DNA from: a virus
IMG/VR virus record: IMGVR_UViG_3300032285_004008
Length of the DNA stretch: 64,000 nucleotides
Direction: 5' to 3' (one strand)
Part shown: piece by piece, positions 1 through 41,509 of the stretch
Layout of the letters: every line of letters starts with the position of its first letter
How positions within the stretch are numbered: position 1 is the stretch's first letter
Notes under the pieces: model-generated
What the model was told of the DNA's origin: nothing
The model's input: the letters and a program-made list of their open reading frames with translations, nothing else
Database searches by the model: none
Position numbers and translations under genes: made by a program

Positions 1-21
1 AAATAAATACATCTGCGAGTC

Positions 22-54
22 AAAAAAAAACGCTGACGATTTCTCGCCAGCGTT
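22..54 (-). terminator. Intrinsic terminator after the ClgR-like gene
   Basis: CGCTG..CAGCG hairpin followed by T9 on the minus strand. Confidence 0.65.
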
Positions 55-66
55 CGTTTGAAGTTC

Positions 67-375
67 TTACAAAACTGATTCAGAATAATTTTCGATTCGA
101 TTCAGCAAATCGTGTGCCGTGTCTGGAATCTGTATGCCACCCATAATGAGAGACGCACAATAAATAATCTCGGAGGGTTCTACTCCCATTCCCTCATAAG
201 CAACTTTGTCTAAAAGTTCCGAACTAAGTTCCTTTGACCCTCGCTCAACTTCGGACAAATACCCAAGTGCGACAGACGCTTGCCCTGAAACCTGTCTTAG
301 CGTTAGCCCCTGAGCCTGACGCTCATCACGAAGGGCTTGCCCCAACGCCACTCTAAACAAAACTCGTTTACTCAT
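67..375 (-). CDS. XRE-family HTH regulator, ClgR/PopR-like
   Basis: [48 protein letters not shown] resembles the actinobacterial ClgR HTH. Start moved to ATG 375, 6 nt after a TATCAT -10 (leaderless). Confidence 0.8.
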
Positions 376-438
376 ACTCAAATGATAGTTGCCGTGTTCA
401 ACTTTGTAAACAACATTCGTTTGAAGTTTGTTCTTCGC

Positions 439-455
439 TAGAAAAAATAAATACA
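439..455 (-). repeat. AT box TAGAAAAAATAAATACA (minus strand TGTATTTATTTTTTCTA), copy 1 of 5 exact copies
   Basis: Exact copies at 439, 1011, 2327, 6721, 7388; partial at 1-11; inverted near-copy at 6082. Confidence 0.9.
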
Positions 456-480
456 AACCCCGTGCGAAAAACCCCGTGCG

Positions 481-523
481 AAAAAAAAACCGCCAGCGAG
501 AGGGGGGTCTCGCTGACGGCTTT
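481..523 (-). terminator. Intrinsic terminator
   Basis: CCGCCAGCGAGA/TCTCGCTGACGG stem with a T-run on the minus strand. Confidence 0.7.
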
Positions 524-538
524 TCTGGACTTATCTGT

Positions 539-910
539 TTAGATTATGTCCACCCTTAGGGTTGCTTTACCAGCACCCTTTGGAATCGTGTATTCCTGTT
601 TGAGCAAGACATACAACTCTGGCTGGGTCTTTTCAAGGCGTTCCCAGTCAAACGATTCGCTTGACGGAATAACCTTGACGCTAATCAAACGCTTTCCCTT
701 AGCGTCCGTGCCAACTAGGTCGGTGAGAGTTTCCCCAACGAAGTCAAGAATCTCGGTGCGTGCCGAATCCCCTAGTGCCTTTGCCTGCTTGGCAAGGTTG
801 CGTGATTCACGCAAGGCTTTCACCTTTGCCTGAACCTTTGGTGGCAAGACAACAATGTTGTCCTGTGTGGTGCTGGTGATAGTTGCTTTCGCAACCTTTG
901 TGTTCGCCAT
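539..910 (-). CDS. Hypothetical early protein
   Basis: 123-aa ORF, GAAAGGA RBS, own promoter and terminator. Confidence 0.75.
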
Positions 911-945
911 TTGATTTCCTTTCGTAGAGTATCACTGGGCTTACA

Positions 946-1027
946 AGTTCCACATTACCTTAGTCTGCCGACATTACGCAAATCCTATCGTGGTCGTGTC
1001 GCCGTGTTCGTAGAAAAAATAAATACA
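946..1027 (-). promoter_or_regulatory. Early promoter cassette: AT box, TTGCGT-N18-TAATGT, GGAACT
   Basis: SigA-like -35/-10 spacing, same layout as the other early cassettes. Confidence 0.7.
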
Positions 1028-1037
1028 ACCCGCCCTG

Positions 1038-1064
1038 AAAAAAAGACTGGGCTTTCGCCCAGCC
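1038..1064 (-). terminator. Intrinsic terminator
   Basis: GGCTGGGC-GAAA-GCCCAGTC followed by T7. Confidence 0.75.
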
Positions 1065-1078
1065 TTTCGTTTGAAGTT

Positions 1079-1939
1079 CTACTCCTCCGTGTTGTCCTCA
1101 TACTTCGGGAAAAGGTGTTCCCCTGTGTTCTCGTCTACAACTCGGAAACTATCTGCGTCCTCTGGTTCGAGGTTGTCTAGTCCGTCTTGGGCAAGTTCCC
1201 ACGCTTGCTCTGCGTTCTGGGCTTTGACCACATAACGGCGTTCGACTACAACTACGAAGTCCCTGTCCTCACGAGGGCAGTCCTCATAGAGGTCGTCTTC
1301 ATCACCGCTTTCGCACGCCCAGCAATCACGCCCTAGTTCCACATAGTCTGCGTGGCTATCGGGTATGTCCCACTCTTTCGTCATAATCAGCGACTTAGTT
1401 GGCTTGCCGTCTTCATCTACATCATCTGCGTCTGACGAAGTAAACTCCGCGCCCCAGCCCTGCTCTTCCTCCGAATAGAAGTCGAATGAAAGTTCTGGGT
1501 GCTGTCTGACTATTGCGTGGAATACTGGCTCTGGTATTGACCAAGCCGTTTGGAATGCGTAGTTCAGAAAAGGTGCTTTGTCGTCCGTGTTGTCCGTGAA
1601 GTCCACATCACTTGCGTCCCACTTAGTTCCCCACTCACGAACATTCCAGTCATACCAGCCGTTAGAAGAAAACTTCATTGAGTAAGCCATCTTATCTTCG
1701 ACAGACCAGTCGTTGTATCCGTCTGGCTTGTAGTCGCTTGCCCCGAAGTAGAGAGCCTTGTCCTCTGGCTCAATGAAGTTCCAAAATGAGAGTTCGCTCT
1801 TGTCGCCCTCCGTGTAAGTGAGCGAGCCGTCCTCCGTGTTCAGTCCGTCTGGTCGAGTTTTGCTCGCCTTATCACGGAACGCAATCAAGTCCTCTTTCGA
1901 GCCATTGACATTCATTGTGTTGTAGACCCAGTTTGGCAT
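1079..1939 (-). CDS. YubB/DUF1281-like ferredoxin-fold protein
   Basis: MPNW start, WYDWNVREWGTKW and FQTAW motifs. Confidence 0.75.
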   Translation of the reverse strand: MPNWVYNTMNVNGSKEDLIAFRDKASKTRPDGLNTEDGSLTYTEGDKSELSFWNFIEPEDKALYFGASDYKPDGYNDWSVEDKMAYSMKFSSNGWYDWNVREWGTKWDASDVDFTDNTDDKAPFLNYAFQTAWSIPEPVFHAIVRQHPELSFDFYSEEEQGWGAEFTSSDADDVDEDGKPTKSLIMTKEWDIPDSHADYVELGRDCWACESGDEDDLYEDCPREDRDFVVVVERRYVVKAQNAEQAWELAQDGLDNLEPEDADSFRVVDENTGEHLFPKYEDNTEE

Positions 1940-1941
1940 TT

Positions 1942-2238
1942 CTACCACTCCCCTTTCTTGATGTCCATTTTGTGCTTTTCAATCATCTCGTTCACAGTTT
2001 CACCTGCGAACAACTTGACTACGCCGAGCCGTGTTTCCAACTCCTCTATGCCCAACTTGCGAGCAAGGATTTCCGCTAGTGCCACAGCACGATACATAGT
2101 TGGGTCGCAGTATCCCTCTTGGCAATACTCCTCGACCATTACACCCAAAGTTGCTAGTGCGATACCAGCAATGTCCTCTGGCTCTAGGTCAGCGTGGTTC
2201 AACTCGTCCATTCGCTCACCTGAACACTTTACGCACAT
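1942..2238 (-). CDS. Hypothetical early protein
   Basis: 98-aa ORF directly after a promoter, GAAAGGGG RBS. Confidence 0.65.
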   Translation of the reverse strand: MCVKCSGERMDELNHADLEPEDIAGIALATLGVMVEEYCQEGYCDPTMYRAVALAEILARKLGIEELETRLGVVKLFAGETVNEMIEKHKMDIKKGEW

Positions 2239-2261
2239 CTCAATCCCCTTTCATTTGGATT

Positions 2262-2343
2262 AGTTCCACTTTACCCTAGTCCTACGACAAATACAAATAC
2301 CTCGTTGGAAGTGTCGTGGCGTTTCGTAGAAAAAATAAATACA
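2262..2343 (-). promoter_or_regulatory. Early promoter cassette: AT box, TTGTAT-N17-TAAAGT, GGAACT
   Basis: Same architecture as the 946-1027 and 6662-6737 cassettes. Confidence 0.7.
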
Positions 2344-2437
2344 CACACTCGAAAAAAAAAACGCAACGCAACTTTTCATGAGTTCGTTTGAAGTTCACCA
2401 GACTCGGCAACAACTGGTGCGCACTTACACATGGCAA

Positions 2438-2479
2438 AGAAAACCCCCGACAATCCGTTAGGACTATCGGGGGTTCTCT
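2438..2479 (-). terminator. Terminator-like hairpin after the VWA gene
   Basis: AACCCCCGA..TCGGGGGTT stem with a T-rich tail on the minus strand. Confidence 0.6.
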
Positions 2480-2486
2480 GTTATCA

Positions 2487-2527
2487 CTAACGGAGTGATG
2501 AAAGGACGAACAAACGCACTCCGTTAG
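2487..2527 (-). ncRNA. 11-bp hairpin whose loop is antisense to early-gene RBSs (candidate 3'UTR sRNA element)
   Basis: CTAACGGAGTG/CACTCCGTTAG stem; minus-strand loop CGTTTGTTCGTCCTTTCAT. Confidence 0.4.
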
Positions 2528-2542
2528 CAAACTTGCTGGCGA

Positions 2543-4303
2543 CTAAACGCTTGCTTTCAAAAGTGCGTCCGTTGCGCTCTTACCAATCGCAGACGCAATC
2601 TCGCTGGTCGCTAGATTTCCTAGCACCACGCCGTTTCCCTTGACCAGTCTCTCGCCCATTCCTTGACCGCACTCTTTCGGTGTAATCCAAAGCAGAGCCA
2701 CGCCGTTCTCTTTACAGAGGCGAGCCGTCTCAATCGCACGCTCGGTCTCTGTGCCTGTGTAATGTCCGTCCGATACAACAACCAACATACGCACGCCAGT
2801 TCCAGTTAGCAGACCAAGTGCGCCGTCCAATGCTCGGAACGCCTTGCCAAAAACTTCCGTTCCGTCTGGTGCGGAGTAGACCGAAACCTTATCCAACTTC
2901 TGACCAACCTTGAGAGTTGGGAACACATCTTGTCCGTAGTAGACCATAGCGGTCTTGGCTTGAATACGGCGACCTGCCTCTGACAAAACCCAAGCCGTAG
3001 TCGCCATGCTTTTCATGGCAGACGACATAGAACCGCTAATGTCCACCATTACGCCAATGGTCAAAGTCGGGTCGTCTGTGTGCTTGCGTGTCTTGTGTCG
3101 CCACGCAGGGTTCAAGTCTCGCACGCCCTTTGCCTCTAGTGCCTTGTTCTGAACAAGCACTCGTGATTTCAGTCTGCCCTTTGGTTCGACAGACTTCACG
3201 ATAGTTTCCGAACGCTCACGATACTTTGCCTTTTCCAACATCTGCGCAAGTTTGACTGCGCTGGCTCGTTCGTGTCCAGTTGGGTCTCGTTGCTCTTGAA
3301 GTCGTGAGTGAGACGAAGTTCCCTCGCTACCACTTGACTTGCTAAAGACTTCCTGTGCGTCTCGCTTGCTCTCGCTTTGTCGCTTGCTCTCGCTCTGACG
3401 CTTTGAGACTTCCTCTTTCCATTCCTCTTGGGTCTGCTGGTCGCCCAAGTCTTTCGCAACGGAAGTTCCAGTCTCACCTGCGTCCTCGCTCAAAGCGTCA
3501 AGCAAGTCCTGAATGATTTGAGGAACGCCAGAACCACCCTCACCCTGTTCGCCCTCTGGGTCTGCCTCTTTCAAAAGGTCATTCCACTTTTGAGCAAGTT
3601 CGATACCACGAGCAACTTGGCTCGTGTGAAGTTGCTGAAACTCCACCCAAACTTTGCGAAGTTCATTGAACAAGTCTAACCCAATGACCTCAAGAACTTT
3701 GTCGAAAGTTGCTTGAACATCTGCCAACTTCAAAACACCTGCGTCCACTCGTGCGAGTGCCAACGCTGATACATGAGCGCACGCACGAACCTCTGTCAAG
3801 TTGTCAAGTGCCTCGTCTGTCAAGTCCTCTAGTGCCAAGTTCAAAGCAGACGCACGCAAGAACAACTGGTTCTCTGGCATTAGAACAACGCCCTTGCGTT
3901 CGATACGACTTTCGTCTAGCAACTGAAAAGTCCTGAAAGTTTTTTCGTCCATGCTTTCAAGCGCAGACATTTCCCAAACTGAAAAACGAGCGTGAAGTGC
4001 CTCGTGATAAATAACCCCTGTTGCCTCTGCGAAGTCATACTGGACTTCTCGCTCTGAAAAGTCGCCAACCATTTCTGGAGTGGTCGCAAGACCAAACGCC
4101 CCACCAATGTTGATTTCGATTTCAGCAGTCGTGTTGATAAAGCAAGCAATAGCCATGCCCATACCTGCGTCCTCGCCTGCGTAAACTGCCAAGTCATTTC
4201 GACCTGACCAAGTGTTTACAACCTGCCCAATCTGTGCGCAAGTTTTCAGCCACTCGTTAGGCGTGGTGCTGGTGCGTGTTGCTACTCGTGATAAGTGAGA
4301 CAT
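2543..4303 (-). CDS. VWA (MIDAS) domain protein with N-terminal HExxH region, CobT/NorD-like partner of a MoxR ATPase
   Basis: VMVDISGSMS MIDAS, VVSDG, YHEALH. Start MSHL at 4303 has a GAAAGGACGAA RBS. Confidence 0.85.
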   Translation of the reverse strand: MSHLSRVATRTSTTPNEWLKTCAQIGQVVNTWSGRNDLAVYAGEDAGMGMAIACFINTTAEIEINIGGAFGLATTPEMVGDFSEREVQYDFAEATGVIYHEALHARFSVWEMSALESMDEKTFRTFQLLDESRIERKGVVLMPENQLFLRASALNLALEDLTDEALDNLTEVRACAHVSALALARVDAGVLKLADVQATFDKVLEVIGLDLFNELRKVWVEFQQLHTSQVARGIELAQKWNDLLKEADPEGEQGEGGSGVPQIIQDLLDALSEDAGETGTSVAKDLGDQQTQEEWKEEVSKRQSESKRQSESKRDAQEVFSKSSGSEGTSSHSRLQEQRDPTGHERASAVKLAQMLEKAKYRERSETIVKSVEPKGRLKSRVLVQNKALEAKGVRDLNPAWRHKTRKHTDDPTLTIGVMVDISGSMSSAMKSMATTAWVLSEAGRRIQAKTAMVYYGQDVFPTLKVGQKLDKVSVYSAPDGTEVFGKAFRALDGALGLLTGTGVRMLVVVSDGHYTGTETERAIETARLCKENGVALLWITPKECGQGMGERLVKGNGVVLGNLATSEIASAIGKSATDALLKASV

Positions 4304-4340
4304 TTGATTTCGTCCTTTCGTTGTCTCTTGATTTGTTGCT

Positions 4341-4375
4341 AGTTCCAACCTTACCAGATTTGGCAGGGAACGCAA
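4341..4375 (-). promoter_or_regulatory. Promoter TTGCGT-N16-TAAGGT-TGGAACT
   Basis: Matches the early promoter pattern. Confidence 0.6.
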
Positions 4376-4424
4376 GTTCATTTACAAACTGCGTTCCCCA
4401 CCTTTTCTAGTAGGAACGGAACTA

Positions 4425-5453
4425 CTAGATTTTGGCTGGCAGAACTGCCTCGCCAAAAACTCGTGTGAACACATCTGCGACAACAGACCTGTCAATCTCT
4501 GGTGCGCTGGCAAGCAAGTTGGCAACTGCCCACTTAGAACCAAACAACTCGCTTAGGTCTCGGAACGCAAGCAACTCTCGCATTTGAGGCGACCATGAAG
4601 TTTCGCCATTCGCCTGTTTCTTTGCCAAGTTCTGTGAGGCTGAAACTGCTGTCGCAGGAACGCCCAACTTCTTTGCCAATGCCCAGTCAGTAGTCATTTC
4701 GACCTGAACGCTGAAACGAGAGAGCAACGCCTCTGAAAGTCGAACTCCGGGTGCGTTAGGGTTGGTCGCACCAATCACGAAAAATCCCTCTTGAGCCTTG
4801 ATAGTTCCTCGCTCTGGGTTCTGGGTAATCGTGATTTCCTTGCGTCCGTCCATAAGACCATAGACCGCAGACAAGACCTTTGGGTCAATCAGACCAATCT
4901 CGTCAATGAGCAAAACTTTTCCTTGCTCGGCAGACTTGACCAATGCGCCGTCCACCCATTCAAAACCGCCACTTGGAGTTTGAACATAGCCACCAATGAA
5001 GTCAGCAAGTTCGGTGTCGCCAGAACCAAGAATGGTGTAAAGTTCGTCAGGGAACGCACCCTCAACGAGTGCTGTCTTTCCAGTTCCAGGTGCGCCATAG
5101 AGCAAGACATACTGACCTGCGCCTCGTGCTTTGCGCAAGACTTCAATGTCTGTGTGTTCTCCCCATGAGCGAGAGTAGTAATCCTGACCATTAGGTCGTG
5201 CGTATTTCTCAACGCCCTCTAATGCCTCAACATTTACCACTTTGTTCGCCTTTACTTTTGGAGTGCCAGTTCCAACTTTAGCACGCACATTCGCACGAGC
5301 AGTCGTTGGCATTAGCGCACTTAGTTCTGCTGGAACTTTGGTTGCGTCCATGTCTTGAATGGCAACACCATAGACAAGTTTCGATAGGTCTTGGTAAAGG
5401 TCGTCCACATTTAGTTCGACCTCTGGAACTGCTGGAGTAATGAGAGTAGTCAT
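4425..5453 (-). CDS. MoxR/CbbQ/CobS-like AAA+ ATPase
   Basis: Walker A GAPGTGKT, Walker B LLIDE, GATNP sensor, ALLSRF arginine finger. Confidence 0.9.
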   Translation of the reverse strand: MTTLITPAVPEVELNVDDLYQDLSKLVYGVAIQDMDATKVPAELSALMPTTARANVRAKVGTGTPKVKANKVVNVEALEGVEKYARPNGQDYYSRSWGEHTDIEVLRKARGAGQYVLLYGAPGTGKTALVEGAFPDELYTILGSGDTELADFIGGYVQTPSGGFEWVDGALVKSAEQGKVLLIDEIGLIDPKVLSAVYGLMDGRKEITITQNPERGTIKAQEGFFVIGATNPNAPGVRLSEALLSRFSVQVEMTTDWALAKKLGVPATAVSASQNLAKKQANGETSWSPQMRELLAFRDLSELFGSKWAVANLLASAPEIDRSVVADVFTRVFGEAVLPAKI

Positions 5454-5477
5454 TTTATTTTCCGTCCTTTTCTATGA

Positions 5478-5996
5478 CTATGCTTTTGAGTTGTATGGCT
5501 TTTCAGGAAAGCCAAGTGCTAGGCGAGTTTTCTGAATACGGCGAAGTGCTGACGCTGGTGCTTTCCAATCGCCGATTTCGGTGAAGTCCATGTCTGTAAG
5601 TTCAAACACGATAGGCTTTGCGCCACGCAAGTTAGTCAGACCATACTTCATCTGACGCTTGAGAACACGCTCTACCTGCTCTGACATAGCAGACGCTTTT
5701 GCCTCTGCTGTGGTCAGTTCCTTATCAGGTCGAATGAAACTGATACGCCATTGCTTGCGTGGAGACCAATCGCTAATAGTGCGAGTGCTAATAGCCATTG
5801 CGACATCTTGACCCTTTTCGTTCTTTCCCTCTGGGGTAATCAAGATTTGAGTTGCTTGGTCGCCATTGGCATTTGGGAGTTCAAGGTAGATACCCATTCC
5901 CATTACCTTTGGCTTGTTGCTAACTTCACCAAGCGCAACTGCGCTGGCTAGTTCTGGGGTTAGTTCCCCGAATGTTCCCATTAGGTCTGGGTTCAT
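5478..5996 (-). CDS. Hypothetical early protein
   Basis: 172-aa ORF, AAAGGACGG RBS. Confidence 0.75.
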   Translation of the reverse strand: MNPDLMGTFGELTPELASAVALGEVSNKPKVMGMGIYLELPNANGDQATQILITPEGKNEKGQDVAMAISTRTISDWSPRKQWRISFIRPDKELTTAEAKASAMSEQVERVLKRQMKYGLTNLRGAKPIVFELTDMDFTEIGDWKAPASALRRIQKTRLALGFPEKPYNSKA

Positions 5997-6044
5997 TTTT
6001 TTCCGTCCTTTACTTTAGGTTTGTTGGATTTTTCCAACAAGTCA

Positions 6045-6096
6045 AACTTAGCAGGGTTCGTTGGAAGTTGTCAAGTTCTGCTGTATTTATTTTTCT
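6045..6096 (-). promoter_or_regulatory. Promoter TTGACA-N18-TAAGTT with an inverted AT box upstream and a 13-bp motif overlapping the spacer
   Basis: Consensus -35; TTCGTTGGAAGTT at 6057-6069; TGTATTTATTTTTCT at 6082-6096. Confidence 0.75.
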
Positions 6097-6103
6097 GGCG
6101 TGT

Positions 6104-6640
6104 CTAGAAGTGAAAATCAACTGGGATTAGGAACTGCTTTTCAGGACTAGAGGCAACTCGCTTTGTGAAGTTGTCTAGTGAACCTGTCCAATAGTCCAAG
6201 TCGTAGATACCACTATCAGGTGTCCAGTCGTCATTCAGAAGTTGTGCCAACTTCTTAGTTCCCCACAACTCCATGTCTAGTTTGTTGTTGTATGGGTCGT
6301 AAGAATAACTAGATAGGTCTAGTGCCTGTGGCTGGAGAAGTCTGATTTCCTCGTAGCGATACTCCAGAAAACGAGTAATCACTTGTTCCGCGAGCGCGGG
6401 GTCGTCTGAATAGCGCAGATAGTTTGGGTTGGTATCTGTGTTGGTCATTACACCCTCCTCGTTGTATGACCCAAAGACTTCACCAGACCAGCGACCAGCA
6501 AAGTTCAAAGTGATAGCCCCTGACTGGTCTGCGTTGTGCCAGTCAGACCATTTTGGCTCGCCCTCTAGTTTGCGTGCTACTTCATCAAAAGCCTGTTCTG
6601 GTGTCTCTGCCTCTACTAGCAGGATTTGGCAAGTGTGCAT
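6104..6640 (-). CDS. Hypothetical phage protein (GRWSG ... VDFH type)
   Basis: 178-aa ORF, GAAAGGACGAA RBS. Confidence 0.75.
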   Translation of the reverse strand: MHTCQILLVEAETPEQAFDEVARKLEGEPKWSDWHNADQSGAITLNFAGRWSGEVFGSYNEEGVMTNTDTNPNYLRYSDDPALAEQVITRFLEYRYEEIRLLQPQALDLSSYSYDPYNNKLDMELWGTKKLAQLLNDDWTPDSGIYDLDYWTGSLDNFTKRVASSPEKQFLIPVDFHF

Positions 6641-6661
6641 TTTCGTCCTTTCGATTTGCCT

Positions 6662-6737
6662 AGTTCCAAACTTACAACGAACCTATGACAAAATACAAGT
6701 TGTCAAACGAGCGTGTTTCGTAGAAAAAATAAATACA
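6662..6737 (-). promoter_or_regulatory. Early promoter cassette: AT box, TTGTAT-N18-TAAGTT, TGGAACT
   Basis: Repeated cassette layout. Confidence 0.7.
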
Positions 6738-6748
6738 ACTAGGGCAAA

Positions 6749-6778
6749 GAAAAAAGCCCCTCGTGTTTGAGAGGCTTT
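6749..6778 (-). terminator. Intrinsic terminator
   Basis: AAAGCC..GGCTTT hairpin plus T-run on the minus strand. Confidence 0.6.
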
Positions 6779-6790
6779 CGTTCTTTGTTG

Positions 6791-7303
6791 TTATGCGTAG
6801 AGTTCCTCACGCAAGAGGTAGCAGGTTTTACAGATTGGGAGGCTTAGGCTCTTACTTCCTCGCCAAGTCTTTCTTTCCTCGAACTCGTGGACGCCCTCTG
6901 CGAAGTGTTTCGCTAGTTCAATCGTGTTTGCGTTGTAGCGAAGTTTGTTCCACATTTCCATACTCCATTCAGAAGTATCAAGAACCAGCATTTCCTCTGC
7001 GTTTCCGAAACTAGACCCAGAGAAGTAAGTCTTATTTCTTGGTTGGAGGTTTAGTGGAACTGCGATAAAAGCCCTGCCAGCAATCGTGTTCTCTTTGGCA
7101 TACTTCTTTGCTCGTGCCTCTGCTAGAGGTAGTCGTGAGTGGACACTCCAAATGCTCTCGAACACCCCATCTTTGAGCATTACAACTCCAGCAGTAATGT
7201 CTGACCTATCTGACCATGTGTAGAGCATTGTTCCAGCCCAGTCGGAGACAGGCATACCTACTGGTAGTTCAGGTATGTATTTGAAAGTGTTGTATTCAGC
7301 CAT
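6791..7303 (-). CDS. Hypothetical early protein
   Basis: 170-aa ORF, AGGAG RBS. Confidence 0.75.
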   Translation of the reverse strand: MAEYNTFKYIPELPVGMPVSDWAGTMLYTWSDRSDITAGVVMLKDGVFESIWSVHSRLPLAEARAKKYAKENTIAGRAFIAVPLNLQPRNKTYFSGSSFGNAEEMLVLDTSEWSMEMWNKLRYNANTIELAKHFAEGVHEFEERKTWRGSKSLSLPICKTCYLLREELYA

Positions 7304-7333
7304 AAATAACTCCTGTTTGTTCGTTTGGAGTCA

Positions 7334-7404
7334 ACTTTACCAGAGTAGATAAGTAGTGTCAAATCTTTTTGGCTTGGTGTGTTGCGCTAGAAAAAATAAA
7401 TACA
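7334..7404 (-). promoter_or_regulatory. Rightmost early cassette: AT box, TTGACA-N17-TAAAGT
   Basis: Near-consensus SigA promoter. Confidence 0.8.
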
Positions 7405-7405
7405 A

Positions 7406-7984
7406 CTAGAGATTTAGTCGATGTTTATTTGCCAGCGCTTCGTAATTCTTTTCTGCCTGCTCGAAATCAAATCTAGTCAAGTATTGAACGAATTCGTCAT
7501 AGTCAGGGAGTTCCCTAGAACTAGATACATGAGGAACACTGGAGTATGGCCCTCCATTGAAAATCTTTGTGGATACTGCCTCAGGGTGGAGTATCTCGTC
7601 ACCCAAAGCGTCAGCAACCTTTTTTACAACTGCGCTTGGATCTTTACAGAAGTCTTCATAAAGAACGACAATTTCTGCATTTGAATCTATGAACCTCATC
7701 TTGTCCGAGAACTCGCGAATGTAGAGGTCTACCATGGCATGGTATCCCTCGTCTCCAATTTGACTGTGTCCCTTTTTGGCATTCATTGCAATCAGTGACG
7801 CCACTGAACTTTTAGGGTCGCGAATGATTGAAACGATTTGCATACCATCAGCATCATCATCAAAGTGTGTCCCACGTAGGTGGACTTCGGTCTGCAGTTC
7901 ATAAGTGTGGGTGAATGCATTGAGCCCAGAGCGTGGGTAGGTGTAAACGACGTATCCGTTCTTACGGGTTGAGTCTAATCCCAT
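7406..7984 (-). CDS. Sulfotransferase-like P-loop protein
   Basis: TYPRSG (5'-PSB-like), IIRDPKSSVAS (3'-PB-like), YEDF. Confidence 0.6.
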   Translation of the reverse strand: MGLDSTRKNGYVVYTYPRSGLNAFTHTYELQTEVHLRGTHFDDDADGMQIVSIIRDPKSSVASLIAMNAKKGHSQIGDEGYHAMVDLYIREFSDKMRFIDSNAEIVVLYEDFCKDPSAVVKKVADALGDEILHPEAVSTKIFNGGPYSSVPHVSSSRELPDYDEFVQYLTRFDFEQAEKNYEALANKHRLNL

Positions 7985-7988: not shown

Positions 7989-8225
7989 CTAAAAATCTTC
8001 CTCCGTTGCTACAACAGCTTCTGCGCACTGCAAGCAAACCGTCCATTGGTCTATGTCATCTAAAACTATAGCGTATGAGTAGAACCCACCGTTGATGTAC
8101 CCGACCTCTTCGTAGCATGCCGAGCATGCCGCGCCGTCAATGTCGTCGATGTCTAGCAAGCCAGCCATCATTGCTGCGTCGATGTCCGCTGCGGACTCTA
8201 TCGTGTGGAGTTCTATATTTCTCAT
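7989..8225 (-). CDS. Small acidic protein with two CxxC motifs
   Basis: CSAC...CLQC. Confidence 0.6.
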   Translation of the reverse strand: MRNIELHTIESAADIDAAMMAGLLDIDDIDGAACSACYEEVGYINGGFYSYAIVLDDIDQWTVCLQCAEAVVATEEDF

Positions 8226-13340: not shown

Positions 13341-13895
13341 TTACTTCTTTTTCGGGGCTGGCTTTTTCTTCTTAGCAACAGGAGTATCAGCAATGTCCTT
13401 CTTGATAGCATCCTTCTTTGCAGTGGTCTTAGCAACTGGCTTCTTTTCAGTAGCCTTAGCCTTAGCCTTAGCCTTAGCCTTCTTGTTCTCAGCAACCTTC
13501 TTGTTGATTCCATCAATCACGGCTGGCTTCTGAACAATGCCCTTAGCCTTCATGGCTTCTGCATCTTCGATGACCTGCTGTAGCTTTGGCTTACGTGCTG
13601 GCTTAGTAGCGGAAGCTGCTTCAATCTTAGAAGTCACGCTCTTTGCGTAAGTCTTCTTTTCATCTCCAGCCTTGCAGTAGCACTTATCTCCCTGACCACA
13701 AACACATGCTGGGTTGTCGTTAGCAGTTGCTTTCACAGTGGTAATCTTTGTGTGGTCTACTGGACACTTTGCTTCCTGCTTGTCTTCCATAACCCAGCGA
13801 CCCATATCATCACGCTTGATAAACATCGGACCGTGCTCATTTGGCAGAGCCTTACCGCCTCGTAGAATCCTACGAATTTTGTTAAAGATTCCCAT
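13341..13895 (-). CDS. Basic protein with a histone H1-like Lys/Ala/Pro tail and Cys motifs
   Basis: KKAKAKAKAKATEKKPVAK..KKKKPAPKKK; KCPVDH; CVCGQGDKCYC. Confidence 0.7.
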   Translation of the reverse strand: MGIFNKIRRILRGGKALPNEHGPMFIKRDDMGRWVMEDKQEAKCPVDHTKITTVKATANDNPACVCGQGDKCYCKAGDEKKTYAKSVTSKIEAASATKPARKPKLQQVIEDAEAMKAKGIVQKPAVIDGINKKVAENKKAKAKAKAKATEKKPVAKTTAKKDAIKKDIADTPVAKKKKPAPKKK

Positions 13896-14124
13896 CTTCC
13901 ATACCTTTCCAGATATCTTCTAGTTGATCGACATCCACAACTGGGTCGATTTTGTTGATAATACTCCAAATGTATTCAGTTAGAGTATCGGCTACTTGCA
14001 CATCGAGTACATCATAGTCAGTCAGAATTTGTAGATGCGCTTCGATCTGACGACCCGCTTCTTCCTTCATCATCGTTACCACACTCCTTGCATTGACAGT
14101 ACCACTTTTTCTCGTAATATTCAA
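13882..14124 (-). CDS. Hypothetical protein
   Basis: 80-aa ORF overlapping the next start. Confidence 0.6.
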   Translation of the reverse strand: MNITRKSGTVNARSVVTMMKEEAGRQIEAHLQILTDYDVLDVQVADTLTEYIWSIINKIDPVVDVDQLEDIWKGMEDGNL

Positions 14125-15775: not shown

Positions 15776-18700
15776 ATGATTTTTAGAGGTAAATCTCTTA
15801 AAGTATTAAAAAAGCCGCTACTTATTACAGTAACGGCCCTTTTAGCTGCTCTACCTATTACAACAGCAGAAGTAGCGATAGCTCAGCAGGTTAGAACTTT
15901 CTCCTACCTCGAGAAGAATTATTACGAGCTCTACCCCCAGCAACAGCTGCAGCTATTACTAGCGCCACAAGCTCTACAAGAACAGTTAGGCCTACTCCCA
16001 GCCATAGGGATGCCCAATCAAGACCTGTTACAGCAACTACCATTTCACACCTCTTCTTCATCAGTTAGTGATTTACAGGCTACTCTAGCACAGCTACAGC
16101 AGCAATTGCAAGCGGCTCAGTCAACTCTTTCTTCAGCCCAGTCTGACCTACAAACTGCCCTATCCTCAAAAACCTCTACTTCAGCCCAGAGACAGTCAGC
16201 CCAGGATGCTTTAGACCAAGCACAGGGTCAGGTTGACACCCTACAGTCACAATACAATCAAGCCCTACTTGTCACCCAGTCTGCTCAACAGGCTCTACAG
16301 CAGGCTAACAATAACTACTCCCAAGCTCTTTCGCAGCTTCAAGATAGCAATCTAAATACTTCTACTCAAGTCACCAACTACAACCTAGCGCAATCAGCTC
16401 TAGAACTACAGCAACAGCGCGTACAAAACGCACTTGCAACTTTAAACGAAGCTATTCACCAGAACCAAGATGCACTTGATCTTCTAAACTCTGCTAACGA
16501 ATCGCTGACCGGTCAAACAAACACCACAAACCAAGCACAAGAAACATTAAGTGCCAAGCAAACTCAGTACGGCACAGCATCAGCAAACTTCCAACAAGCA
16601 ACTTCTGATTACAACTCAGCGCAGCAAGATTTAAATCAAGCTACAGCTACACAACAAGAAGAACAGCAGAACTACGATTATCTGTTAGGTGTCTACAATC
16701 AAGCAGTTGCAGATAGACAAGCAGCAGAAGTTTCCTACAATCAAGCAGTTTCCAACCACGCTTCAACCGAAGCAGATAAAGCAGCCAAACTAACTGCCAT
16801 GCAGCAAGCAGATGCTCGTGCTTATGAACTAAGTGCTATATACACAGCAGCTGCCGCTCAAGCAGACTTAACATATTCTCAGCTTGTTGTTGCTACACAA
16901 GATAAAGTATTTGCTCAGCAAACTTTGCAACAAGCACAAGCTGCATATGATGCTGCTGCTTCACTAACAATAACTCCACCAAGCACAGGTGCCGTTACTG
17001 CTGGACTGAAGGTAGATGTGTACAACAGCCTGAATCAGATTCCACCTCAACGCTCAACCACTGCCTACCACCTATGTAGGACAGAAACCATGAGCCAGAT
17101 TGCAAACAACTGGGGGTCTGGTTCTATAGAAGGTTGCGGTAGTGATCGCGTGATGGTTCACTACTACGGGTTTATTACCTACCCAACCACCGCTAGCGTC
17201 CAGTTCATGGCGCAGGCAGATGATGGTTTCTATATGACCATCAATGGAACACCTATTGTTACCGACTGGCGAGACAAGGGTTGCGGAGCTTCAAGCTTTA
17301 ATTACTTCCAATTCCAAGCAGGGGTTTCTTATGCCATCGATGCTTGGTTCTATGAGAATGGTGGCGGTGCTTGTTCTACCCTTTATGGCTACGACACCGC
17401 TTACTATCCTTACGGTTGGTTCGTAGTTCCTGCTTCTTTCTTCACCCAAGGTGAAGTCCCTCAGCCAATCCCAGTTCCAGTGCCTCAAACTATTATTGAT
17501 GCCCTTGCAGCTGCACAGGCACTTTACACAAACAAACTAGCAATCTATAACGATGCCGTAGCTCAAAATAACATTGCACAGGGTAATAAGCAAACAACCC
17601 TAGCTAATTACTCGAATGCAATTGATTACCGAAACCAGCGCATGTACGAGTATCAAGCAGCTGATGCAGCAAACAACCAAGCAATTCAAGACGAGCAGGA
17701 TGCCCTAGGAGTTCTTCAGTCTGCACAGGCTTCAGAGGAAGATGCTCTTCAAGCTCTCAATGAGCAAGCTCTTGTTCTAGATGCAGCTAATCAAGTTTTG
17801 GCAGATAAGCAAATGGTATTTGGTATAGCAACTTCTAATTTAGAGTCTGCACGCCAATCTCTATACCAAGCAGACCAAGAACTCGCAGCAGCTCAACAAG
17901 ACTACGACCAGCAAGTTTCTATTCTTCAGCAAGTACAGGACTATCGAGACCAGCTAGCAGCAAATCAAACTGCAACTGATTTACAGCAGCAAATTGCTCA
18001 GCAAGATTATGACAACGAACTAAACATCTTGCACTCACTAGAGCTAGCTCTTGCAGCCGCTCAGTCATCTCTAGAGCAAGCAACCGCAGCTGAGGCTGTT
18101 GCAGCGCAACTTCTAACCAGTGCTCAGCAAGACTTACTTCTAGCACAGCAAGACATAGAAGATGCACTAGTAGCAGAAGCTCAATCACTTGCAGATGCGC
18201 AATCTGCAGAGAGCGTAGAGTCCACCGTCTCATCAGAACTAAGTTCCGCAACCCAAATGGATGACTCTGCAACTACACAAGTTGCTTCTGCACAATCTTC
18301 AGTAGAATCAGCAACCGCTATTGTTTCCTCTACGCAAGATGCTATTGCCGCAATGGAAGCAGCTATAGCAGCTCAACAAGCAGCGGATGCTCAAGCAGCT
18401 CAGGAAGCTGCAGATGCAGCAGCAAAGGCAAAAGCAGAAGCAGACGCTAAAGCTGCAGCAGACGCACTAGCAGCTCAACAGGCGGCAGAAAAAGCAGCGG
18501 CAGAAAAAGCTGCAGCCGACAAGGCTGCTGCAGAAAAAGCAGCCGCTGATGCTCTTGCTGCACAACAAGCAGCTGATGCCGCCGCTAAAGCCAAAGCAGA
18601 TGCAGAGGCTGCCGCAGCAGCTAAAGCTGCCGCAGAAAAAGCAGCGGCAGAAAAAGCTGCAGCAGATGCTCAAGCAGCAGCCGAACAAGCAGCTAAAGAA

Positions 18701-22661: not shown

Positions 22662-22707
22662 TGAACTGCCTCTCTTATCTCTATTCATAGTTGCGTCTAC
22701 TATATAG

Positions 22708-22781
22708 CGAACCCAACCGGACTTGAACCGGCGACCTCCGCCGTGACAGGGCGGCGCTCTAACCAACTGAGCTATGAGTCC
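22708..22781 (-). tRNA. tRNA-Asp(GTC)
   Basis: GGACTCATAGCTCAGTTGGTTAGAGC..CTGTCAC..GGTTCAAGTCC cloverleaf; no encoded CCA. Confidence 0.95.
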
Positions 22782-22800
22782 ATCTACTTAAAGTATACAG

Positions 22801-22873
22801 CCCCCTATGAGAGATTCGAACTCCCGGCCTTACGGGTAGAAACCGTCTGCGCTATCCACTGCGCCAATAGGGG
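22801..22873 (-). tRNA. tRNA-Arg(TCT)
   Basis: CCCCTAT acceptor, TTTCTAC anticodon loop, GTTCGAATC T-loop. Confidence 0.9.
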
Positions 22874-23548: not shown

Positions 23549-23989
23549 TTAAAGAGCTACTTTAATTACCTGCGGTAGGCGATACTTATCATAATTGTAG
23601 CTTTTATTAGCATTGAACTCCTTTGATGCCTCTTCATAGGTCTCAAATAGCTGAATAAAAACCTCCATATGACCAAGGTTATTGCGTCTACCATTTTGCT
23701 CTGACCCATAGTAATCGCCAGAGTATCTCTCACGAATGACTGCCCAATTACCGCTACCGTCAATATATGGGCGGTCTAGGTGCGCATTCTCACCATTGTG
23801 CCGATAACGCTTACCAATAGCACATTTAAAGAAGGTCTCAGCAGTCTTATGTGACTTAGAACATTTACAGTTGCTCCATGTAGATACTGGAGCTTTAGCG
23901 GCAATTTCTTTAGCTTTCTGCTCATACTTCTGACGAGACTCTTCACCAAGAGCAGCAAGTTCTGCCCACGAGATCTGATTAGATGACAT
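23549..23989 (-). CDS. Hypothetical protein
   Basis: 146 aa, CKCSKSH motif, coupled to the Hsp20 gene. Confidence 0.65.
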   Translation of the reverse strand: MSSNQISWAELAALGEESRQKYEQKAKEIAAKAPVSTWSNCKCSKSHKTAETFFKCAIGKRYRHNGENAHLDRPYIDGSGNWAVIRERYSGDYYGSEQNGRRNNLGHMEVFIQLFETYEEASKEFNANKSYNYDKYRLPQVIKVAL

Positions 23990-24843
23990 TATGCCTCCAC
24001 GATCTTCTTGTAGGCAATCATGTAGCCAGTACTCGAGTACTTACCATCTTTATTCACACAATGAGGGCTACGATGCTCTGGCTCATATTTACCATCATTA
24101 CCTTCAGGCATACCATGGGTGTGATATTTCAAGCACTCATCACAATAGACATATACAATCTCTGCACCAGGGTAGCTAGGATTTGGTTCTGATTTATCAA
24201 TGTAGAGAATAGGTATATCAGACGTACCTTCTTTTACAGAGATATCAACTACATCGTCATACTCCACAGGGTATTCTTCAACGACGGTAATGACTAGCAT
24301 TCCATTATCTAAAAAGGCTTTACGAACCTTAGCCCACGGGGTTAGTAGGAAACTACGATGAAAGTTACGAGCAGCAATCCCGCTGTACTGAGTAGTTTCA
24401 GAAAGTACTACCGTCTCACTATCATCCGAGTTCTTATTAACCTTAAATTGAGCTGTACCTTTAGGAGCTTCACCATCAATATATAGGGTCCCACGGATCA
24501 AAGATACTGATAAATCACCTGCTGTAAACCCAGATACCGCCATAGTAATCTGATACTCAGTAGATTTTAGTGATGATTTACTATCATAAATGTGTTTAAC
24601 ATTAATCGTATGAAATGGATAATTATCCTTTTGAGGGTACTCAAAGAAGTCTGTCATCTCCTGTAGAAGAGATTGATACCCAATTGAATACTTATGTATT
24701 CCAGGATAGTTTTTTTCCATTTCAGCATTTAGTTTCTCTAGATAGTCAGCTACTCGCTCTGTATCTACAAGCCCAAATGGACGAGATGGTACATCTGCAT
24801 CTAGTGCTTTGACGCCATCTTCTTTTGTTCTATTTACTGCCAT
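23989..24843 (-). CDS. Small heat-shock protein (Hsp20/IbpA-like) with a C-terminal Cys/His domain
   Basis: NYPF..ITMAVSGF..GIAARNFHRSF..A.LDNGMLVI; C-terminal CDECLKYHTHG..HRSPHC. Confidence 0.85.
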   Translation of the reverse strand: MAVNRTKEDGVKALDADVPSRPFGLVDTERVADYLEKLNAEMEKNYPGIHKYSIGYQSLLQEMTDFFEYPQKDNYPFHTINVKHIYDSKSSLKSTEYQITMAVSGFTAGDLSVSLIRGTLYIDGEAPKGTAQFKVNKNSDDSETVVLSETTQYSGIAARNFHRSFLLTPWAKVRKAFLDNGMLVITVVEEYPVEYDDVVDISVKEGTSDIPILYIDKSEPNPSYPGAEIVYVYCDECLKYHTHGMPEGNDGKYEPEHRSPHCVNKDGKYSSTGYMIAYKKIVEA

Positions 24844-32219: not shown

Positions 32220-33107
32220 CTAGTCAAGTAGCTGTTCTATGCAATATGGTAGGTCTTCTATATTTCCATCATTAAAAAGATACCTATCAAACGGGTACTT
32301 ATTCAAAGCAGTCTCAGAAATATGGTCATTTGCTGGACCAACGCTTTCACGAATAATACGCCAGACTTCCCCGCCATTTGAGTAAATAGCGTCAGCCTCA
32401 TTAGGGAATCTGACGTCAGCAAATACTACCTTTTCACCGTCTGGAATTGCTGCAATTGCTGCATCAACCCAAAAATTTTCTCCCCACATCTCTCGTCCAA
32501 CTTCGGTCCCCATGCGCTGCATAAGGCTACGAATATCAGGACTTTGAGTTTTTAACTCCTCCCACCCCATGAGATCAACTGCCGTAGCAAGATGCATGCT
32601 GTAGCCATTTAGATCTACGGTGGGATTCAGTCTGTATAAGGCACCACGCATTTGATCTGCAAAAGACACTTTAGTGTAACCATGCGCAGCAACCAAATAG
32701 TTTGCAACAGTATCCTTACCGCTACGTGCCCAGCCAGACAAGCCAATCATTCTAATTCGGGGAATCAATTCTCCGTTTTTTAATACCATCAAAGGAAGTC
32801 CAAGTGCTTTAGCTACTGTTACTTCAAGAGTAGCTCCTTTAGATTTCTCCCACCCAGGGAGCAAGCAAAGCATGTCTACGTCCATAACATGAGGCAAGTC
32901 ACGCTTCATATAATATGACCAAAGGTTATTAGGGGATTCTGGAGTACCAGCTGACTGTAGTGCTTCTTGAACAGTTGCTCCATCATTGTGTGCTGGATTT
33001 ATTACGTCATATCCTAGCTTTTCAAGCTCACGCTCTGCTTCAAAAAATGCTGGAAAATTGAAATCCTCCATGCCACTCATAGGGCCAGCGATATACACCT
33101 TAGTCAT
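32220..33107 (-). CDS. DUF4406 (deoxyribosyltransferase-like) fused to a dNMP kinase
   Basis: VYIAGPMSG..NFPAF..WEKSKGATLE; IGLSGWARSGKDT..DVRFPNE..HISE. Confidence 0.85.
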   Translation of the reverse strand: MTKVYIAGPMSGMEDFNFPAFFEAERELEKLGYDVINPAHNDGATVQEALQSAGTPESPNNLWSYYMKRDLPHVMDVDMLCLLPGWEKSKGATLEVTVAKALGLPLMVLKNGELIPRIRMIGLSGWARSGKDTVANYLVAAHGYTKVSFADQMRGALYRLNPTVDLNGYSMHLATAVDLMGWEELKTQSPDIRSLMQRMGTEVGREMWGENFWVDAAIAAIPDGEKVVFADVRFPNEADAIYSNGGEVWRIIRESVGPANDHISETALNKYPFDRYLFNDGNIEDLPYCIEQLLD

Positions 33108-36994: not shown

Positions 36995-37696
36995 TTAAGG
37001 CGCAACTCTTCCATTTTTATTAAATGTTTCATAGGTTATAGGCATTTTTTCAGCAAAGAACTCTTCCATCTTTTCAGCAACCATTTCAATTTCCCGCTGA
37101 GGAAAACTAGGGAAGTGGGTGCCTTCGCGAATAGTACGTAAGGATAGAAAGTTCATAAGAGATCTTGCATTAATAGTTACATACATGCTGCTGTAGATGT
37201 TCAGCGGAAGAACCATACGAGCTACTTCACGGGCTATGCCAGATTCCATAAGCTCTCTGTAACGATGATAAGCGTGCTCAGATACAAGCTCAAAGTCCAC
37301 TTCAATATCGTCATGCTGCTCGGCAGTTCCTGGCTCAAAGGTATATGCCCCTGGCTTTCCCTGCTGAATTAGCTTTCGACTGCGGTCTGGGATGTAAAAC
37401 ACAGGAGCAAGCTCCTTGTAGCGACCCGACTCCTCGTTGTAGGAGGCGATGCGGTGACGCATGAACTCACGGAAAACAAATATTGGTGCTTCAATATAAA
37501 AGGTAAAGGCATTGTGCTCAAACGGCGACCCGTGGCGATCGCGCATCAAATAATTGATTAGGCCAGCATCTTTTTCAGGATTTTCCGAGGCTCCTGTAGA
37601 TACACGAGCTGCCATAGTTACAGCCTCATCGGAGGCCATAGAATTGATAAGTCTTACAGTAACGTCGCTGCGAAAAGTAATTTCGATCATGCTCAT
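36995..37696 (-). CDS. thyX: Flavin-dependent thymidylate synthase
   Basis: HGSPFEH, REFMRHRIASYNEESGRY. Confidence 0.97.
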   Translation of the reverse strand: MSMIEITFRSDVTVRLINSMASDEAVTMAARVSTGASENPEKDAGLINYLMRDRHGSPFEHNAFTFYIEAPIFVFREFMRHRIASYNEESGRYKELAPVFYIPDRSRKLIQQGKPGAYTFEPGTAEQHDDIEVDFELVSEHAYHRYRELMESGIAREVARMVLPLNIYSSMYVTINARSLMNFLSLRTIREGTHFPSFPQREIEMVAEKMEEFFAEKMPITYETFNKNGRVAP

Positions 37697-39787: not shown

Positions 39788-39806
39788 AAAGCCATCCTAC
39801 TTATTG

Positions 39807-39880
39807 TCGAGAGTGTGGGACTTGAACCCACGACGACCGAATTATGAGTTCGGGGCTCTAACCAGCTGAGCTAACTCCCG
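39807..39880 (-). tRNA. tRNA with CAT anticodon (elongator Met or Ile2)
   Basis: CGGGAGTTAGCTCAGCTGGTTAGAGC..CTCATAA..GGTTCAAGTCC; 5' end overlaps the dut 3' end. Confidence 0.9.
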
Positions 39881-40304
39881 TTGAGCCAAAGCCACCATCT
39901 CCACGATCTGACTCTGGAAGTTCTTGCACTACTTCAAAATCTGCTCTAATAAATTCTTGAATAACAAGTTGAGCAATTCGATCTCCACGATTTACTACAA
40001 ATACATCATTTCCAGTATTGTACAGAATTACACCAATCTCGCCGCGATACCCAGAATCCACAGTCCCTGGAGTATTCAATACCGTAATGCCATTCTTTAG
40101 TGCGAGTCCACTACGAGGGTGCACGAATGCAACATAGTTGCTAGGTAGTGCAATTCTAACGCCAGTCTTGACTAAAGCCCTTTCTCCAGACTTAATTGCC
40201 AGATTTTCCGCTGAGCGTAGATCAGCTCCCGCATCGCCAAACTTAGCGTAACTTGGCAGTAGATCCGGTGATTCAGCAGTAATTAGCACAGTAGTCATAG
40301 ACAA
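39858..40304 (-). CDS. dut: Trimeric dUTPase
   Basis: AGADL, PRSGLA, GTVDSGYRGE, RIAQL, RGDGGFGSTG. Confidence 0.97.
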   Translation of the reverse strand: MSMTTVLITAESPDLLPSYAKFGDAGADLRSAENLAIKSGERALVKTGVRIALPSNYVAFVHPRSGLALKNGITVLNTPGTVDSGYRGEIGVILYNTGNDVFVVNRGDRIAQLVIQEFIRADFEVVQELPESDRGDGGFGSTGVSSAG

Positions 40305-40329
40305 TACCCTAGCATAGTAAACTAGAAAA

Positions 40330-40920
40330 ATGACTAGTTACTCTAAAGAAGATATCAAAAAAGCTATAGCCGAGGCAAATGCCAAGGAAATTGCTGTATC
40401 TTTTAAGGGAATGGCCCCCATCACGCCCGGCTGGGATAAATTTATCCACTTAATACATTCAGAGATTCACGGGGCACCGAATACCACTATCCCAAATTCT
40501 CCCTTAGAAGAGAGAATGATAAATGGCGTGATAATCAGAAATCTTTTCTATCTAACTGTAAGAATATCTAAATTAGAGATGCTATCTGAATCAAGTGCAC
40601 TTATAGAAGTATTTAGCGATATTTTTAATACAGAAATACTTCCAGTCTCGGCATTTATAAATATTATTGGTGGGGAAAAGCCAGGAGAAGCTCATAAAGA
40701 TAATAGGGAGACTATTTTCTGGCAATGCCATGGCGTGTCAGAATGGACGCTATACGAGACACCAGAATCGCCAAAATATGAGACATCAGAATTAAAAATA
40801 TATAAAAAGATAAGGCTAGATCCGGGGGATGTTTTATATCTAAGAAATCAAGGAATACACTCAGTGCAGAATTTTGGACCAAGAGCATCTATTGCTTTTA
40901 TGCCTGATAATCGTAACTAG
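40330..40920 (+). CDS. JmjC/cupin-like 2OG oxygenase (A)
   Basis: HKD.RETIFWQCHG..W..LDPGDVLY..HSV..PRA. Confidence 0.75.
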   Translation: MTSYSKEDIKKAIAEANAKEIAVSFKGMAPITPGWDKFIHLIHSEIHGAPNTTIPNSPLEERMINGVIIRNLFYLTVRISKLEMLSESSALIEVFSDIFNTEILPVSAFINIIGGEKPGEAHKDNRETIFWQCHGVSEWTLYETPESPKYETSELKIYKKIRLDPGDVLYLRNQGIHSVQNFGPRASIAFMPDNRN

Positions 40921-40993
40921 AGCCTCCAACAGGACTTGAACCCGTCACCTACGCATTACAAGTGCGTCGCTCTACCAGATGAGCTATAGAGGC
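40921..40993 (-). tRNA. tRNA-Thr(TGT)
   Basis: GCCTCTA acceptor, ACGCA-CTTGTAA-TGCGT anticodon arm. Confidence 0.95.
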
Positions 40994-41050
40994 AGTAAAA
41001 GAATTTAGTATCAGGAAACATATTTGTCTGATGATCTTATGATTCTTTTG

Positions 41051-41494: not shown

Positions 41495-41509
41495 TTTGTC
41501 CTTCTTTCG

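Follow-up and report, generated by a model that had tools for sequence, protein, structure and literature searches.

The window analysed here, a 64,000-nucleotide (nt) stretch of DNA from the IMG/VR virus record IMGVR_UViG_3300032285_004008, begins with a region, positions 1–7404, from which most short palindromes of the type recognized by restriction enzymes have been lost or nearly lost. This region, referred to below as the block, continues past the window start, and all of its genes are on the minus strand, so that position 7404 is its promoter-proximal edge, a correction to an earlier note on this DNA. The block is organized as a chain of minus-strand cassettes of one to four genes each, in which a hairpin and T-run, an 18-nt AT-rich box, about 25 nt, a TTGACA-like −35 element, a 17-nt spacer, a TAnnnT −10 element and a ribosome-binding site precede the genes in that order. 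The promoters are co-oriented and sigma-70/SigA-like, run from the sharp edge, and are separated by a terminator after each cassette.

Five promoter boxes, all on the minus strand, were located in the block. The most upstream, box 1 (7388..7405), is AT-rich and lies about 25 nt before a TTGACA-type −35 element with a 17-nt spacer and a TAAAGT −10 element; it marks the sharp edge of the block, which is the predicted leading end. Box 2 (6721..6738) stands ahead of an operon encoding acid178, p172, an ATPase and a protein with a putative VWA domain, and boxes 3 (2327..2344), 4 (1011..1028, preceded by a terminator hairpin) and 5 (439..456) belong to the third, fourth and fifth cassettes, respectively. 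An 82-amino-acid (aa) open reading frame with a TTG start at 2282–2530 (minus strand) is probably not a gene, as it overlaps a promoter box and a terminator tail.

The block carries nine genes, in agreement with the earlier count, and these are given here in the order of transcription, all on the minus strand. Relatives were collected through the ATPase, which has 184 in IMG/VR, and 80 loci were fetched. The first block gene encodes a 170-aa protein (6791..7303) that is present in few relatives. The operon that follows starts with acid178, an acidic protein of 178 aa (6104..6640; isoelectric point (pI) 4.3) encoded by the first gene past the edge in the closest relatives, and continues with p172 (172 aa; 5478..5996), which adjoins the ATPase in 76 of the 80 relatives. 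The ATPase itself (4425..5453) is a MoxR-class AAA+ protein (Pfam AAA_5, expectation value (E) 9e-20) with the Walker A motif GAPGTGKT and two forced CCNGG sites, discussed below. Its 612-aa partner (2543..4381) has a C-terminal VWA domain according to a weak Pfam match (E 0.0015, below the cut-off) and a DxSxS metal-site motif, and the pair is kept in 79 of the 80 relatives. The remaining genes encode an acidic 98-aa protein (1942..2238), a very acidic 289-aa protein (1079..1948; pI 4.1) with a DUF1281_C/Api92-like domain, a basic 123-aa protein (539..910) that weakly matches the C-terminal portion of a RecE-like PHROG, and an XRE-type helix-turn-helix regulator assigned by Pfam (67..402), the true start of which is probably downstream of box 5.

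Analysis of word counts in 1–7404 revealed that 12 of the 16 palindromes of four base pairs (bp) are represented by six copies in total, against about 340 expected. Eight of these, ACGT, AGCT, ATAT, GATC, GGCC, GTAC, TATA and TTAA, have no copy at all, and AATT, CCGG and TGCA (one each) and CGCG (three) are nearly as rare, the expectation for each of the 12 being 25–32. Thus, the five words that the earlier note had reported missing (GATC, AGCT, GGCC, GTAC and TTAA) are all absent, and the purge is stronger than that note claimed. Four palindromes are kept: CATG (13 copies), CTAG (33), GCGC (21) and TCGA (24). Every 4-mer with a count of one or less is a palindrome, and no non-palindromic 4-mer is missing, the rarest being GATG (two) and GCGG (three). 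The early −10 hexamers TAAAGT, TAGGTT and TAAGGT (minus strand, within 7334–7362, 6660–6700, 2270–2300 and 950–985) contain neither TATA nor ATAT, indicating that the purge extends into promoter elements. The G+C content is 48% in 1–7404 and 43% in the remaining window.

The purge also covers interrupted and longer words. GCNGC and GGNCC, both already reported missing, have no copies, nor do GTNAC, CCNNGG and GGNNCC; ACNGT occurs once and CCNGG twice. These seven, which we take all to be restriction-enzyme sites, are nearly gone out of the 32 words of the form XY-N(1-2)-Y'X', and the other 25 are much less reduced. The exceptions described earlier as forced by the protein proved exact: the two CCNGG fall at the two Pro-Gly pairs of the ATPase (4747 and 5086), and the single TGCA at a Met-His start (6636). 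Words of the form XY-N(1-6)-Y'X' are otherwise mostly close to expectation, a few AT-rich ones being moderately low. The clearest further deficit is CAN6TG, with six copies in 1–7404 compared with about 27 expected and a normal count in the block of a close relative, which identifies it as a lineage-specific avoided spaced word; none of the six copies has the fully symmetric 3+4+3 form, and we know of no enzyme that could be named for it. Among 6-bp palindromes, 61 of 64 are purged and six copies remain (TCATGA, TCTAGA and four of TGCGCA) of 113 expected. ACTAGT and TTCGAA are missing despite their common, retained cores. Several asymmetric words resembling type IIS sites are likewise purged on both strands: GGATG and GCATC are absent and CTCAG and CCTTC have one copy each, these being presumably the sites of FokI, SfaNI, BspCNI and HpyAV, respectively.

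To compare these counts with what codon usage and protein sequence would allow, the coding sequences were shuffled 300 times by exchanging synonymous codons, which keeps both the proteins and the codon usage, and 300 times by codon order. The shuffles gave 7–36 copies of each purged word in the 6.6 kb of coding DNA. For 11 of the 12 purged 4-bp words and for the four type IIS-like 5-mers, the observed count was never reached in either type of shuffle; CCGG was within the shuffle range (one observed, shuffle minimum one). The interrupted sites were below every shuffle, except ACNGT, which was matched in one synonymous shuffle. The four retained palindromes fell inside the null range, and GANTC and CTNAG were about halved.

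The effect of the purge on the proteins was equally marked. In the 2,195 aa of the block, Ala-Ala and Gly-Pro, both of which the earlier note had described as absent, occur 0 times against 17 and 5.7 expected, Val-Thr 0 times (10 expected) and Thr-Val once (10 expected). For the ten dipeptides in which every codon pair creates a purged site, regional statistics of the kind that the note called for gave four occurrences in the block proteins against 54.5 expected, and 369 against 320 expected in control proteins from the same window (9,942 aa). ATPase orthologues show the same relationship, with three to eight Ala-Ala each in most unpurged relatives and none in the clade of the window and in most strongly purged relatives. 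The purge acts through synonymous codons and through the exclusion of site-forcing dipeptides. One argument did not survive this comparison: the earlier note had attributed the Walker A form GAPG to the purge, and this is rejected because GAPG is the commonest form of the ATPase family in purged and unpurged relatives alike.

Some features of the block could be read as pointing to a cause outside defence, such as mutational bias, DNA or RNA structure, or a transcription constraint, any of which would disfavour short palindromes in early genes with high expression. The block forms its own class of transcription unit, with strong promoters, TATA and ATAT could make spurious −10 elements, and the Actinomycetia phage DSL-LC01, one of the nearest records (see below), lacks ATAT and TTAA genome-wide. 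We consider such a cause extremely improbable, as CATG, CTAG, GCGC and TCGA, which are words of the same kind, are at normal levels, the spaced losses are specific to word and spacing, asymmetric 5-mers are lost on both strands, 4-bp palindromes form no hairpins, and the avoided sets differ among relatives of equal architecture.

The upstream edge of the block is sharp. Counted per kb, the 12 purged words number 0–3 up to 7 kb, 15 at 7–8 kb and 32–75 beyond. The earlier statement that sites are dense after 8 kb holds, but their return starts before the 7548 given there, the first being AATT at 7444, followed by GGCC at 7548. The first box ends at 7405, where it abuts the stop codon of the preceding gene, so that the start of the purge coincides with the first early promoter to about 40 bp. 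That gene, which encodes a sulfotransferase-like protein (7406..7984, minus strand), is the first outside the block and has normal site density. Further out is a Cys-rich 78-aa gene (7989..8225, minus strand), found upstream of the block in 47 relatives; the closest relative has no other gene between it and the first promoter box of the block.

Comparison with relatives showed that the purge is both recurrent and variable. A drop in palindromes starting 1–2 kb upstream of the ATPase gene was found in many of the fetched loci, and none was found in others; the 54 distinct ATPase rows divide into 30 with the purge, 13 with a partial purge and 11 without one, and the purge state changes at least six to seven times on the ATPase tree. 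A complete relative of 153.7 kb (84% ATPase identity) has exactly one purged block, at 131.3–145.0 kb (8.9% of the genome), the rest of its genome carrying 43–127 sites per 2 kb. This block keeps the same four palindromes as the window, and 15 promoter boxes cover it precisely. Non-coding DNA of about 0.9 kb separates it from a compact operon, which leads on to a 735-aa gene and to the terminase. In a second relative (G002), the purged block is 31 kb long, and a non-coding stretch rich in repeats closes it, 3.5 kb short of the terminase. Within this stretch (about 36.25–36.6 kb), an 8-bp unit (CTCACCTA-like) is repeated in tandem approximately 15 times, and a partly palindromic unit of 18–20 nt is present in about eight copies; the stretch might act as an origin, as a packaging site or in the manner of an injection stop. 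The avoided word sets also vary by lineage: none avoids CTAG strongly, some avoid TCGA, GCGC and CATG, and some keep AGCT. In a few relatives some words are avoided genome-wide. At a G+C content of about 55%, DSL-LC01 (OQ999401.1, positions 1–50000) has no ATAT and no TTAA, and AATT, TATA and CTAG are scarce; this is avoidance of AT-only palindromes across the whole genome.

Sister lineages have unpurged orthologues of these genes, which indicates purging in place, and we take the purge to be a living, lineage-specific adaptation. This bears on the idea that the cassettes form a mobile gene pool shared by phages and plasmids of many hosts and that the purge records their travel history. In line with such a pool, the cassettes are autonomous with conserved junction boxes, gene content downstream of the core differs between relatives, and the single-strand-binding protein (SSB), DUF3846 and helix-turn-helix genes in one relative's block resemble those of plasmid leading regions. 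In that relative (G001), the SSB (16938–17330, minus strand) and DUF3846 (13598–13969, minus strand; both in coordinates of the fetched stretch) are encoded in distal early cassettes. The most purged part is nevertheless the conserved core (p172, ATPase and VWA partner, in 76–79 of 80 relatives), which tracks the phage lineage, and the edge falls at the first promoter rather than at individual cassettes; together with the unpurged orthologues, these observations make a mobile-pool origin of the purge quite improbable.

The results as a whole make it very likely, as judged from sequence comparison, that the block has been selected against many restriction-modification specificities at once. The words lost are palindromes and other enzyme-type words, the loss goes beyond codon usage and is carried at a cost to the proteins, and the set varies among relatives, so this part of the earlier interpretation is well supported. 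The differences in avoided words between lineages in particular point to restriction-modification, and shifting repertoires of restriction enzymes would yield exactly this lineage pattern. Variation of the word set also counts against a purge that arose as an escape from the phage's own nucleases, degrading host DNA while only the block is inside. There is some precedent, since T5 degrades host DNA during first-step transfer and the survival of its own DNA is unexplained (PMC10644984), and the purge is limited to early DNA as that idea would have it. However, more than 20 distinct words are avoided, in sets that vary among close relatives, which fits changing host enzymes better, a search of the block with Pfam and PHROGs found no nuclease domain, and staged entry would still be needed, so that we regard this explanation as very unlikely.

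The restriction of the purge to one bounded region raises the question of what sets the block apart from the rest of the genome. We propose that the block is an early region of autonomous cassettes, in each of which a terminator, an AT-rich box and a host-type promoter accompany one to four genes, and that its DNA would be inside the cell and transcribed while host nucleases are still active. Natural selection would then strip from it the recognition words of many restriction-modification systems, and the remaining 90% of the genome would be protected later, presumably by block products. As these sites number in the thousands elsewhere in the genome, another shield would be needed there, with the block exposed before that shield is present. 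The simplest physical basis would be that the block enters first, with its leading end at about 7405 and entry along the direction of transcription, either as a first-step-transfer segment like that of T5, possibly a long terminal repeat collapsed in assembly, or by slow polar entry. We regard staged exposure of a first-entering block as the best overall explanation and a reasonably probable one; that the block physically enters the cell first is a plausible inference, which we rate as slightly favoured.

Several observations are consistent with this proposal. The purged region matches an array of early promoter cassettes exactly, and the complete relative has no other region of this kind. A step at the promoter-proximal edge was found in 22 of 22 purged relatives, marked in most and weak in the least purged, and the density of residual sites, 4.9 per kb over the first 4 kb, is 7.8 per kb at 6–10 kb, an increase seen in 18 of the 22 (Wilcoxon p = 0.001, for loci that are not independent). 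The sharp step and the downstream relaxation together suggest a leading end at about 7405. The large terminase shares 49% identity with its counterpart in Gordonia phage GodonK, the linear record of which (NC_048176.1) has an exact 7,581-bp direct terminal repeat with 19 small genes and normal palindrome density. The terminase gene is 20.5 kb from the left end of GodonK, and two relatives have the block edge at distances of 18.8 and 20.5 kb from theirs. In addition, lysis-type genes lie just ahead of the edge and packaging genes soon past the block, lysis followed by packaging being the usual order around a phage genome end, and 0.7–0.9 kb of non-coding DNA is present at the far edge of the block in two relatives, repeat-rich in one and weakly so in the other.

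An arrangement in which the whole genome enters together, with the bulk shielded by DNA modification or a co-injected protein and the block exempt, for instance since host RNA polymerase must still be able to read it, could also leave the block alone to avoid sites. The normal site density of the remaining genome does call for some protection, and the window encodes a fusion with a deoxynucleoside monophosphate (dNMP) kinase, ThyX and a ribonucleotide reductase, which are common in phages with modified DNA, as well as many 2-oxoglutarate (2OG) oxygenases and transferases. On the other hand, the window yielded no DNA methyltransferase and no base-modification enzyme, known phage base substitutions are genome-wide and would cover the block too, and to our knowledge there is no precedent for a region exempt from modification. 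As such an arrangement would also leave the downstream relaxation unexplained, we consider it unlikely.

Other observations weigh against first entry. A local purge is absent from DSL-LC01, from the terminal repeat of GodonK and from the surroundings of the ATPase gene in phage Pumpernickel, and in both GodonK and Pumpernickel, cultured phages with a related ATPase, the ATPase gene is in mid-genome. Circular-looking assemblies cross both edges of the block, and an apparent terminal repeat of one related contig proved to be a 127-bp assembly overlap. The first-step DNA of T5 shows no general loss of palindromes, so staged entry alone does not produce a purge of this kind. The terminator after each cassette argues against T7-style entry driven by RNA polymerase, a purged block of 31 kb would be unusually long as a first-step segment or as a terminal repeat, and the downstream relaxation could instead come from younger accessory cassettes that are still unpurged. 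Contig ends were also tried as a proxy for termini and set aside, the ends of related contigs being scattered without clustering at the edge.

The principle of staged DNA entry behind this proposal is already known from T5 and T7. Phages of the T5 type are restricted only when sites are present in the first-step-transfer DNA (PMC10644984), and in Autographiviridae the leading region that is injected first decides restriction sensitivity (PMC12455610). The first-step DNA of T5 and BF23 (Tequintavirus) resembles the block in comprising about 8–9% of the genome, in its small early genes read by host RNA polymerase and, possibly, in a non-coding, repeat-bearing border. A long terminal repeat like that of T5 is present in GodonK, the nearest cultured relative by terminase; for the block, a terminal repeat and two-step transfer are putative. 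Unlike the block, the T5 segment has 627 palindromes against 619 expected and two divergent gene units, whereas block genes are co-oriented and the purge is near-total and reaches the proteins. A tblastx comparison of one relative's block with T5 positions 1–45 kb found no homology, including to A1, A2 and dmp.

The early region of T7-like phages (Autographiviridae) is similar in having host-type promoters that run inward from the leading end, which for the block is a predicted end. The acidic protein encoded by the first gene past the edge in the closest relatives is reminiscent of Ocr; Pfam gave no match to Ocr in the block, and the fold modelled for acid178 matches nothing solved. The block differs from the T7 early operon in its terminator per cassette, a genome of about 150 kb and a terminase of another lineage. 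Genome-wide site avoidance in phages and bacteria removes similar words under the same presumed agent, and the block departs from it in being one sharply bounded region of 7–31 kb that has lost most 4-bp and 6-bp palindromes and whole dipeptides. Restriction-site avoidance in prokaryotic genomes has been described (PMC4687349). Our literature search found no report of a sharply regional purge of this type, and a bounded, near-total purge of many specificities that reaches the proteins and recurs in a family of large uncultured phages seems not to have been described. Small early genes, strong promoters and first-exposed DNA are also features of the host-takeover module of Bacillus phage SPO1, which lies in its terminal redundancy, and of conjugative-plasmid leading regions. 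In SPO1, protection comes from hydroxymethyluracil in the DNA and not from site avoidance. Plasmid leading regions carry SSB and anti-restriction genes, and the SSB in a relative's block recalls them.

The proteins of the block might be expected to include counter-defence functions, as the earlier note suggested in proposing anti-restriction genes among its open reading frames. None could be shown to be such by Pfam, PHROGs, structure models or the Atlas. Searches of the block proteins with Pfam and PHROGs found no known anti-restriction family and gave only the helix-turn-helix, AAA_5, weak VWA and DUF1281_C matches and the weak RecE-like fragment; a sequence search of the PDB gave no meaningful match, and Atlas look-alikes are phage proteins of unknown function. 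A model of acid178 (predicted local distance difference test (pLDDT) 88) has no match among solved structures, and the sole match of the AlphaFold model of the 289-aa protein (pLDDT 81) is the uncharacterised Api92 structure 2ijr (E 1e-3). DUF1281_C was found together with a polyvalent-protein domain in one bacterial cluster. A phage MoxR ATPase has been reported as required against a predicted defence system (preprint 10.1101/2025.11.20.689424). In a more speculative scenario, which we hold only tentatively and think rather doubtful, widespread uncultured freshwater actinophages would use staged delivery, with a first 8–31 kb nearly invisible to type II enzymes. The conserved leading genes, those for acid178, p172, the MoxR-class ATPase and its VWA partner, would in that case constitute a novel system of broad spectrum, by which host nucleases are disarmed ahead of the arrival of the remaining DNA.

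The window appears to come from a large uncultured freshwater phage. In a search for the remainder of the block, exact 40-mers of the window matched no viral or metagenome contig, and megablast against phage records likewise gave no hit. Two WhiB proteins are encoded in each of the complete relatives, and the nearest records by ATPase and large terminase are DSL-LC01 (73% and 72%) and Gordonia and Microbacterium phages, making an actinobacterial host likely; DSL-LC01 is itself assembled from a metagenome (PMC10611076). Elsewhere, the window encodes ribonucleotide reductase, ThyX, the dNMP kinase fusion, many 2OG oxygenases, a carbamoyltransferase, lysins and tail-fibre-like proteins. The fusion joins a DUF4406 domain (nucleoside deoxyribosyltransferase-like) to the dNMP kinase (32220–33107, minus strand), and ThyX, a thymidylate synthase, is encoded at 36995–37696 (minus strand); nucleotide-metabolism genes of this kind are sometimes linked to modified DNA. 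A transfer-messenger RNA gene (41509–41821, minus strand), with a tag peptide ending in ALAA, lies beside a six-tRNA cluster (22707–22873 and 39806–41370), and a 284-aa protein with an Hsp20/alpha-crystallin domain is encoded at 23989–24843 (minus strand).

In sum, the block is an unusually clear example of a nucleic-acid constraint shaping protein sequence, in which selection at the level of DNA can forbid dipeptides such as Ala-Ala across about 2,000 residues of working proteins. The lists of avoided words, which differ among sister lineages, offer an indirect record of the restriction enzymes of hosts that have never been cultured, and the block yields a short list of conserved genes to test for counter-defence. 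If first entry is true, the limits and polarity of a first-entering segment would be readable from sequence, and word counts would show what part of an uncultured phage's DNA is the first to be exposed, and from which of its ends, information that would otherwise be unknowable without the host.

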